Positions 10,053 through 36,562 of a stretch of DNA of 64,000 nucleotides are shown here, piece after piece. Source of the DNA: Octopus vulgaris (taxonomy: Eukaryota); assembly GCA_951406725.2 (NCBI GenBank), contig OX597834.1, positions 15,562,001 to 15,626,000 of the forward strand, read 5' to 3'. The notes beneath the pieces are model-generated. The model saw only the letters and a list, made by a program, of their open reading frames with translations, had not been told where the DNA came from and did not search any database. Numbering within the stretch: the first letter of the stretch is position 1; each line of letters starts with the position of its first letter. The translations under genes were made by a program, and so were the position numbers.

Positions 10053-10069
10053 ATATATATATATATATA

Positions 10070-10244
10070 ATAACAAAGGGTAAAATTAATTAATTAAGAG
10101 GTAATCAGTAATTTCACCAAGTAGAATTCGGCATGAAAAAGACCATTTCATGGTAAGTAGAAGGAATAGCTAAGATTTTTTTGACTGCTATTTCTAAACT
10201 TCGGTATGTGGTGAAGCAAATCTTTGCTGAACCCTAATTATAAA

Positions 10245-10245
<1 letters not shown>
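10070..10245 (-). mobile_element. Diverged terminal fragment of the hammerhead tandem element family (35141-36188), with an inverted segment, in (TA)n
   Basis: AGGGTAAAATTAATTAATT..AATTTCACCAAGT matches 35578-35617; CTGCTATTTCTAA..GGTATGTGGTGAAG resembles the inverted part at 36124-36157. Confidence 0.65.
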
Positions 10246-10294
<49 letters not shown>

Positions 10295-33172: not shown

Positions 33173-33205
<33 letters not shown>

Positions 33206-33206
<1 letters not shown>

Positions 33207-33411
33207 CGGGAAGCTTTATGAAAATAAACAAAAGACGAAGGCAGGTGGAATACAAACAAACAATTGTATTAGTATGGCGCTCAGGAATATAAATAAAACA
33301 AGTCTTTTACGTTTCGAGCCTACGCTCTTTAACAGAAAGATACACAGAAAAGAAACACGGAGAAAGAAACAAGGAGAGAAAAAAATGCGTGCAGAAGCTA
33401 GCGAATCAACA

Positions 33412-33447: not shown

Positions 33448-33547
33448 TTTGCGCATACTATATATATATATATATTTCCAATACTTTAAGTTTTCTTAGT
33501 ATTGATTGTGTTTGTGCCCCCCCTACCATCGCATGACAACCGATGTA

Positions 33548-33634
33548 ATGGTTTGAATTCGCCTTAAATGGTCCCTTCGTATACTGAATACTTGGTAAAA
33601 TTGATTAATTAATTAATTTTACCCTCAATTGTTG

Positions 33635-33637
<3 letters not shown>
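33548..33637 (+). mobile_element. Terminal fragment of the hammerhead tandem element family
   Basis: Reverse complement of about 35567-35655; ends in (TA)n. Confidence 0.8.
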
Positions 33638-33686
<49 letters not shown>

Positions 33687-34092: not shown

Positions 34093-35145
<1,053 letters not shown>

Positions 35146-35220
35146 CAACAATTGAGGGTAAAATTAATTAATTATTAATCAATTTCACCAAGTGGTATGC
35201 AATTTAAGGCGAAAAATTAT

Positions 35221-35262
<42 letters not shown>

Positions 35263-35303
35263 AAAGTTTGGGGGTAAGGACATTAAAAAATCAAATGCTA
35301 AGG

Positions 35304-35363
35304 TTATTTGAGTACGTACGTTTCAAGATTAGTCAAAGCAACATTTCTCTCTTCAGCTCATAA
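35304..35363 (-). ncRNA. Minimal type I hammerhead ribozyme (copy 1)
   Basis: TGAG-CTGAAGA-GAGA(17 nt)TCTT-GAAAC(GTAC)GTA-CTCA: intact CUGAnGA/GAAA/UH core, paired stems I-III, palindromic loop III; predicted cut between 35313 and 35312. Confidence 0.8.
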
Positions 35364-35848
35364 ATTCCTTGGTTTGGATTTGGAAACACTGAAAGTAAGA
35401 ACTTACCCTTTCGAAGATCCGCTCTCAACTACCAGTGCCAACGAATCCAAATAAGCAAGTGAATCATTTCTGCTCTCCCCTTTCCACCAGCGTGGGTTAA
35501 AATCATCAAACGCTATGCTTATTTCGGTAAAATCCGAAGCATTAATTAGAGGGAGATTAATTATAATTTCAACAATTGAGGGTAAAATTAATTAATTATT
35601 AATCAATTTCACCAAGTGTTCAGTATGCAAAGGGACCATTTAAGGCGAATTCAAATTATTACATTATATAAAAGGGCTTAGTAAAATAAATTACTTCGCC
35701 GCATACTGAACTCATTAGAAATAGCAGCTAAAAAACTTTTTTAAAGCTATTTCTAATACTTAAAGAAAATCTCTCTCATATATAGCGTTTGCTTAATTCA
35801 ACTCACAAAAGTTTGGGGGTAAGGACATTAAAAAATCAAATGCTAAGG

Positions 35849-35908
35849 TTATTTGAGTACGTACGTTTCAAGATTAGTCAAAGCAACATTTCTCTCTTCA
35901 GCTCATAA
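35849..35908 (-). ncRNA. Minimal type I hammerhead ribozyme (copy 2)
   Basis: Same sequence as 35304-35363, 545 bp away. Confidence 0.8.
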
Positions 35909-36209
35909 ATTCCTTGGTTTGGATTTGGAAACACTGAAAGTAAGAACTTACCCTTTCGAAGATCCGCTCTCAACTACCAGTGCCAACGAATCCAAATAAG
36001 CAAGTGAATCATTTCTGCTCTCCCCTTTCCACCAGCGTGGGTTAAAATCATCAAACGCTATGCTTATTTCGGTAAAATCCGAAATTCTTTAAGTATTAGA
36101 AATAGCTTTAAAAAAGTTTTTAGCTGCTATTTCTAATGAGTTCAGTATGCGGCGAAGTAATTTATTTTACTAAGCCCTTTTATATAATATATATATATAT
36201 ATATATATA

Positions 36210-36412
36210 ACGGGAAGCTTTACGAAAATAAACAAAAGACGAAGGCAGGTGGAATACATACAAACAATTGTATTAGTATGGCGCTCAGGAATATAAATAA
36301 AACAAGTCTTTTATGTTTCGAGCCTACGCTCTTCAACAGAAAGATACACAGAAAAGAAACACGGAGAGAAACAAGGAGAGAAAAATAAAAAAAAAAAAGG
36401 AGAGAAAAAAAA
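36210..36412 (-). mobile_element. Family E element with variant hammerhead-like motif (36308-36343)
   Basis: Minus strand CTTT-CTGTTGA-A-GAGC(gtag)GCTC-GAAACATA-AAAG. Confidence 0.75.
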
Positions 36413-36422
36413 TATATATATA

Positions 36423-36562
36423 TTGGTAAAAACGGTAAGATACCAAAAGAAAGAAAGAGATTTACTGATAAATAGAGGAATTTATCAGTAAATATAATAT
36501 GTGACAATTATTCGGTAGCCATGATAAAACTCTGAGTTTCGGATGCCGGGGTGGAAATCCAC
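36423..36562 (-). mobile_element. (TA)n-adjacent repeat fragment with half hammerhead (GGAT..ATCC-GAAAC-TCAGA-GTT); second copy at 27977-28040
   Basis: TAATATGTGACAATTATTCGGTAGCCA.GATAAAACTCTGAGTTTCGGATGCCG.GGTGGAAATC occurs twice in the window; internal 14-bp hairpin ATTTACTGATAAAT/ATTTATCAGTAAAT. Confidence 0.6.

Follow-up and report, generated by a model that had tools for sequence, protein, structure and literature searches.

Our data imply that the tandem element studied here is, judged by its sequence, one insertion of a young, dispersed and ORF-less family of non-LTR retrozymes. The element lies in the window, by which we mean the whole stretch of 64,000 nucleotides of Octopus vulgaris DNA that was analysed. 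It was probably inserted in a tract of TA repeats by a Penelope-like reverse transcriptase (RT) which primed both DNA ends at two fixed positions, A and B, likely on a circular RNA.

The 545-nt unit of the element is numbered along the minus strand from its predicted cut, with nt 1 at window position 35857. One whole unit (35313..35857, minus strand, 33% G+C, no ORF) runs from cut site to cut site. It is joined by the partial unit nt 320-545 (35858..36083, minus strand), which is the inner, 5' end of the left arm, and this is followed by the inverted right arm (36085..36188, plus strand), which covers unit nt 91 to about 195 and carries the site B end. The direct repeat 35260-35538 = 35805-36083 is 279 bp long and 100% identical at a spacing of 545 bp, and the inverted copy 36085-36188 matches 35663-35767 at 99% identity. 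The initial annotation had described this spacing with a repeat of 278 bp, a distal inverted copy, TA flanks and a lack of ORFs, and all of this stands except the length of the repeat: TA tracts, which have no strand, lie at both outer ends, (TA)21 at 35099..35141 on the left (site A) side and a tract at 36181..36209 on the right (site B) side, and no ORF of at least 50 aa is found within the element.

The left end is more complex than had been annotated, as it consists of a deleted copy of unit nt ~200-296, then (TA)18, then nt 53-1. Its outer piece (35138..35223, minus strand) reads from unit nt ~296 back to ~200 and gives the insertion its site A end; the first 57 nt are identical to the internal copy, and three small deletions of 4, 8 and 3 nt were read by eye. 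The unstranded (TA)18 (35224..35260) stands within the arm at the site B position, in place of unit nt 54-199, and from it the arm jumps to nt 53, the piece nt 1-53 (35260..35312, minus strand) being downstream of hammerhead 1. This left arm is atypical compared to the other loci. It is most simply read as one event during which the enzyme slipped on the template, and a nested insertion into an older stub is possible. Two dispersed relatives had been annotated at 33548 and 10070, and both were recovered: the first is a separate older stub that reaches from site B to site A (unit nt 194-296) with 90% identity and has (TA)23 after it (33543..33643, plus strand), the second a separate, divergent two-armed stub of sister family 2 with one A end, one B end and TA on both sides (10069..10248, no strand).

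Several other features of the window were observed along the way. Clusters of small deletions in unit nt 190-265, a stretch inside the folded element described below, occur in the window (35194-35223) and at two other loci (L053 5144-5404, L065 3658-4012), and would be due either to slips of the enzyme or to errors in sequencing. A repeat of 203 bp, with copies at 36187-36389 and 33183-33385 that are 94% identical, took up the insertion of the 545-nt unit at its TA end; inspected by eye, it is one end of a different Penelope-type family, with a minus-strand hammerhead that is minimal and degenerate. Inspected in the same way, positions 36420-36560 are the 3' half of one more element end of hammerhead type, comparable to ends present in L226 and L248, and at 34763-34894 a G+C-rich unit of 17 bp is repeated in 7.8 perfect copies where a common repeat begins.

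Scanned on both strands with a descriptor, the whole window has exactly two type I hammerheads, both in the element and on the minus strand. Hammerhead 1 (35309..35360) has its core start at 35356 and its predicted cut between 35313, the last base before it, and 35312; hammerhead 2 (35854..35905) has its core start at 35901 and its predicted cut between 35858 and 35857. The mean over 100 block shuffles was 0.06 matches. Two canonical minus-strand hammerheads had been annotated here, with a motif descriptor and Rfam proposed as checks. The motifs and their core bases were found again by the descriptor, whereas Rfam returned no hammerhead over the window at E<=1 (among the best 150 of 385 matches) or over the element at E<=10. 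Nor does the word canonical extend to the 10.1-11.1 pair of stem II, which is G-U rather than G-C in the window and U-U in a large part of the family. In sections of PMC4209133 the G-C at this place is called highly conserved, and G-U or U-U may weaken the predicted ribozyme. Hammerhead 2 is built of a 4-bp stem I, the core CUGAAGA, a stem II with a 17-nt loop and a palindromic 8-nt stem III, for which a duplex is predicted at -9.8 kcal/mol and no hairpin alone. According to the same sections, a hammerhead with a weak palindromic stem III needs a dimer; excerpts of 10.64898/2026.07.22.740005 report that eight out of nine Xenopus retrozyme dimers were not cleaved in vitro.

As the initial annotation required of genomic copies, the hammerhead core is kept across the sister families; stems I and III differ in compensating ways. 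Because stem I, loop 2 and the stem III palindrome vary around an unchanged core (families 3, 6 and 9 by eye), the comparison argues for selection acting on the hammerhead fold. Where its position was tabulated, the hammerhead precedes the long-range stem of the folded element by 135-158 nt. Sister families 5 and 8 (L274, L283, L289, L291, L096) have the core UUGA(C/U)AA, with U3-A8 for C3-G8 and with stems I and III kept; such a replacement is tolerated in hammerheads. The genome also holds many unrelated hammerhead clans, and other, unrelated hammerhead families lie in the flanks of L171 (12-545), L078 (200-560), L177, L208 and L212, one of them with a spacing of 533 nt.

The genome search with the unit gave 243 matches, with 40 of 1,291 candidates scored. 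Our locus set comprises the window and 39 other loci on many contigs, all chosen for holding a full unit, and long insertions are over-represented in it. The arrays hold 1 to at least 11 full units, are built solely of the unit and are without ORF. A search for the monomer beside a Penelope ORF or in ORF-less tandems had been suggested to separate a Penelope pseudo-LTR from a retrozyme, and ORF-less tandems are what it returned. Features of non-LTR retrozymes present here are tandem type I hammerhead units, lack of coding capacity, low G+C and dispersal, and, judged from arms made of the unit only, the lack of an LTR/PBS/PPT architecture. The size of 545 nt is outside the 170-400 nt given for metazoan non-LTR retrozymes in parts of Cervera and de la Pena 2020 (PMC7229834) and inside the 51-972 nt given in parts of the preprint of Li, Clavereau and Pollet 2026 (10.64898/2026.07.22.740005). 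A target site duplication above 4 bp, a retrozyme feature when present, would be hidden by the TA tracts on both flanks. Recent activity had been proposed from the near identity of the repeats; it is supported by full units 100% identical to that of the window at four other loci on three contigs, and the identity within the array is a reflection of a single template. Contigs of presumed-RNA runs cover the unit and its head-to-tail joint, but the joint is present in probable DNA runs too, so these contigs are no sign of expression.

Two further observations concern the arrays themselves. The same array in L058 (3100-3577) and L059 (6371-6800) is fused at its inner end to a sequence which by eye is like a mariner transposase; the two copies are 60 kb apart, and the junction turns up as a loose end in one public run (X6) too. 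By visual comparison, the spacers of several sister families share a short purine-rich block starting with CAC, located here at unit nt ~360-385 (window 35473-35498), which is a possible internal promoter.

Among the 39 other loci 30 are two-armed, with arms head to head and 3' ends outward into TA tracts; of the remaining nine, eight are single-armed and one is broken by assembly gaps. Every one of the 30 two-armed loci has one A end and one B end, site A falling at nt 284-300 (~296) and site B at nt 193-209 (~198), an outcome with a chance near one in a billion under free choice between two equally used sites. One A and one B end were also found in 11 of 12 two-armed loci of sister family 1b, and the rule also holds in a Penelope-like family of this genome that is autonomous and bears a hammerhead, for 13/13 head-to-head loci with both ends TA-flanked (50 loci were inspected, and one in which two B ends face each other was set aside). 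Inner junctions share at least one base in 20 of 30 cases.

Both the inverted 5'-truncated arm beside a direct arm (30/39 loci and the window) and the TA targets are features of Penelope-type products. Passages of PMC8557442 describe an inverted copy plus tail as the known anatomy of Penelope-like insertions, with a tail of usually 30-40 nt; the A-B tail here measures about 98 nt. A purified Penelope-like protein, predicted to be a dimer, had two internal RT start sites and extended both target strands (PMC11167929). The A and B arms match the inverted copy plus tail that this work traced to two internal start sites, and with two fixed ends the Penelope-type insertion proposed in the initial annotation comes out stronger than it was claimed. 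As to the pre-existence of the TA tracts, two empty sites alone were informative, both in native TA tracts of a common repeat, where added repeats are indistinguishable.

Assembly is difficult across fold-backs and long tracts of TA, and one could argue that tandem and inversion are assembly artefacts, the case in which the annotated reading was to fall. We give this practically no credence, since the same architecture stands at 30 independent loci and since independent short-read contigs of other public runs contain the head-to-tail joint as well as the A/B ends, the latter as loose ends with TA at positions 35562 and 35657.

Full units are on average 0.65 substitutions apart within arrays (200 pairs, 132 identical) and 11.1 apart between arrays (5,905 pairs); the two arms of the same locus show 19 differences over 10,529 sites, the arms of different loci 6,493 over 321,717. 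Rare variants that recur in a locus are present in both arms in 20 of 23 cases, 14 haplotypes were counted among 16 arrays of at least three units, and in 11 of the 27 loci with several units a private variant is present in all of them. All 168 unit junctions at the cut site are without indel, and the sole common change affects the cut base, which is A or U. Inner ends, 60 in total, are scattered across the unit, and 10 of the 30 two-armed loci have more than one unit in each arm. From the low divergence within arrays, the shared private variants, the indel-free junctions and the scattered inner ends we infer that each insertion passes through one unit, which is re-amplified on a template continuous across the cut, as a circle gives.

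It might be proposed that the enzyme copied self-cleaved linear monomers and jumped from end to end to build the tandem. A single inner end of the 60 (L063) does lie exactly at the cut, and jumps between different monomers could yield mosaic arrays; however, the 168 of 168 clean junctions and the absence of a pile-up of inner ends at the cut make this improbable. Six arrays are in fact mosaic, with variants recurring in some units only (L032, L044, L056, L057, L065, L068): L032 and L057 alternate with a period of two, L056 agrees between arms, L068 is without simple period and the arms of L065 disagree. The disagreement in L065 and the aperiodic L068 are not obtainable from a single monomer circle, therefore a minority of insertions was likely copied from dimer circles or uncut multimers.

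These mosaic arrays also bear on a model with the same two-site Penelope priming in which the template was always an uncut linear multimer, the arrays grew via unequal crossing-over and the hammerhead was idle in copying. The purified protein took uncut RNA as its dominant substrate in vitro and did not need the hammerhead (PMC11167929), which tempers the circle model as well; the weak 10.1-11.1 pair points the same way, the scar-free junctions fit equally well, and local tandem amplification is proposed in portions of 10.64898/2026.07.22.740005. Yet private variants fixed in all units of both arms would require a one-unit bottleneck and re-amplification, copying of a linear source cannot lengthen an array whereas arrays reach at least 11 full units, and the hammerhead core is conserved across divergent ORF-less families. 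We consider the linear multimer rather unlikely as the general template and prefer the circular RNA.

The start positions belong to a folded cis element at unit nt 97-296 (35562..35761, minus strand), the fold of which scores z -7.6 against shuffles. It consists, in order, of an upstream hairpin, a long-range stem, the hairpin before site B (~35660), a small hairpin and a long hairpin before site A (~35562), each site lying 10-20 nt past its hairpin in U/A-rich sequence. Related elements are common to at least nine ORF-less families (1, 1b, 2, 3, 4, 5, 6, 8 and 9), found by DNA searches with 1,291-2,487 first-look candidates each, which are not copy numbers. Over 11 sequences of seven families the 9-bp long-range stem, the hairpin before B and the small hairpin recur, and a 3-bp helix switches between C-G and U-A. 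When run on the automatic alignment, RNAalifold gave two helices only, because hairpins are misaligned there, and both partners had changed in 3 of the 18 pairs; the other helices come from single-sequence folds and a motif table, without shuffle control for covariation. Conservation of the fold is thus supported but not statistically proven. Apart from this, family 5 has a short fold-back form (L241-L254, L257-L259), concentrated on one small contig, in which both arms of several loci span the same stretch to site B and which may have spread by another route.

If the element were only the pseudo-LTR end of an autonomous Penelope-like element, the other option of the initial annotation, its ORF would have been truncated away here. 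The insertion anatomy would be identical, but an RT and GIY-YIG ORF between pseudo-LTRs is not what was found: past site A there follow, in all arrays, the spacer and the next hammerhead instead of an ORF. Among 342 loci 230 hold 570 cis-element matches, and for 15 of these matches a Penelope protein match is present at most 2 kb upstream. In 13 cases a TA tract of at least 17 units separates the two, and in the remaining two cases unrelated sequence and an inverted arm stand in between. The pseudo-LTR is therefore a very improbable reading, and the ORF-less retrozyme family is the one that we retain.

The search for the driving element gave no direct link to the cis element in two abundant autonomous families or in 143 loci with Penelope protein matches (scoring covered the best 148-150 of 6,136 and 16,106 candidates of the Penelope/GIY-YIG searches). 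A family with a 781-aa RT + GIY-YIG protein inserts next to TA, but no hammerhead was found at its ends, nor any likeness to the unit; it is young and has a second upstream ORF as well as direct terminal repeats, which measure up to ~500 bp and end in TA (L100, L101, L103, L104). The second, hammerhead-bearing autonomous family follows the same two-end rule, but its end region is unlike the cis element. Twenty further GIY-YIG loci contained one cis-element match, unlinked, and sister families 2, 3, 5, 6, 8 and 9, considered as autonomous partners, each proved to be ORF-less permuted units.

Sister family 9 has four TTA units at site A, (UUA)4 in the RNA. Of its 26 A ends viewed, seven run into longer TTA tracts of 7 to more than 50 units (L280, L301, L304, L316, L375, L380, L401), none has TTA on the opposite flank, and the other flank of the seven is TA or unique sequence; the count combines 4/17 of a first set with 3/9 pattern-picked loci out of 18 new ones. 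In five other families 0 of 114 TA-flanked A ends carry at least 10 TTA. The runs suggest repeat addition at the start site in the manner of telomerase, and insertion at TA/TTA borders or later slippage is possible too. On the strength of these runs and of the (TA)18 inside the window's arm at site B, we tentatively put forward, as a speculation more doubtful than our main reading, that a Penelope-like RT dimer on the two-hairpin RNA starts both DNA ends, rolls round the circle and stutters on the short U/A template next to each hairpin, thereby adding microsatellite repeats in the way of telomerase. If this were true, part of the reported microsatellite targeting would be microsatellite synthesis. 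No description of repeat addition by Penelope-type enzymes was found in the open-licence literature.

Put together, the preferred mechanism would begin with read-through transcription of the minus strand. The RNA would cleave itself at successive hammerheads, probably as dimers via the palindromic stem III, and be ligated into a circle, as known retrozymes suggest. A Penelope-like protein would then bind the fold at nt 97-296, the conservation of which is computational, and cDNA synthesis would start from both target ends, one at A and one at B, in keeping with the observed positions. Going backwards, each cDNA may pass the cut site and extend over as many as several units, which agrees with the continuity of the junctions, and the two inner ends would finally be joined, often over the few shared bases seen there. 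The insertions bear the Penelope footprint itself, and an RNA element with two start positions can now be named. Priming by both target ends on one RNA is directly testable in the existing in vitro system, and the circle as template, the requirement for the hammerhead and repeat addition at the start sites by this telomerase-related enzyme are directly testable in vitro as well.

Several known systems resemble this element in part. In L1 twin priming both target ends prime on one RNA, which gives an inverted arm. The inverted arm and the likely priming by both target ends on one RNA are similar here, but the start sites are fixed and internal, the arms overlap in sequence and each can exceed one unit. 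Chlamys elements such as MRC1, as portrayed in parts of PMC8557442, are likewise non-autonomous, Penelope-type and inserted as multicopy head-to-tail arrays; their 3' ends are like those of their autonomous partners, and they belong to a clade without canonical hammerheads, whereas our element has a hammerhead and no partner among the 143 loci with Penelope protein matches. With endonuclease-bearing Penelope-like insertions, as far as sections of PMC8557442 and PMC11167929 describe them, it shares the partial tandem, the adjacent inverted 5'-truncated copy, the tail at one end, microsatellite or AT-rich targets and two internal start sites downstream of the hammerhead. It differs from them by the lack of an RT or GIY-YIG ORF, by several whole units per arm and by the length of its tail.

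The closest relatives are metazoan non-LTR retrozymes, which in parts of PMC7229834, PMC7761336 and 10.64898/2026.07.22.740005 are likewise ORF-less, low in G+C and arranged in dispersed tandems with a type I hammerhead per unit, have a weak palindromic stem III and occur in genomes together with Penelope-like elements. Unlike retrozymes as described there, the present family targets TA and is inserted as a pair of inverted arms with two fixed ends. Sections of the review PMC7761336 speak of animal retrozymes without a conserved motif pointing to the driver, whereas here the folded element is shared by at least nine families. The main text of 10.64898/2026.07.22.740005, as available, does not use the word 'tail' and has 'inverted' once, in a reference, and the accessible portions of the open-licence literature yielded no description of two-armed retrozyme insertions. 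The return of retrozymes via a circle and a Penelope-like RT was a hypothesis of 2020 in parts of PMC7229834, and the Penelope link was supported by sequence kinship in 2026 (parts of 10.64898/2026.07.22.740005). The insertion anatomy and the shared start element are absent from these portions of the retrozyme texts; the Penelope link had been proposed before. In all features testable by sequence the element would thus work like a metazoan non-LTR retrozyme with Penelope-type insertion products, and not as an autonomous element.
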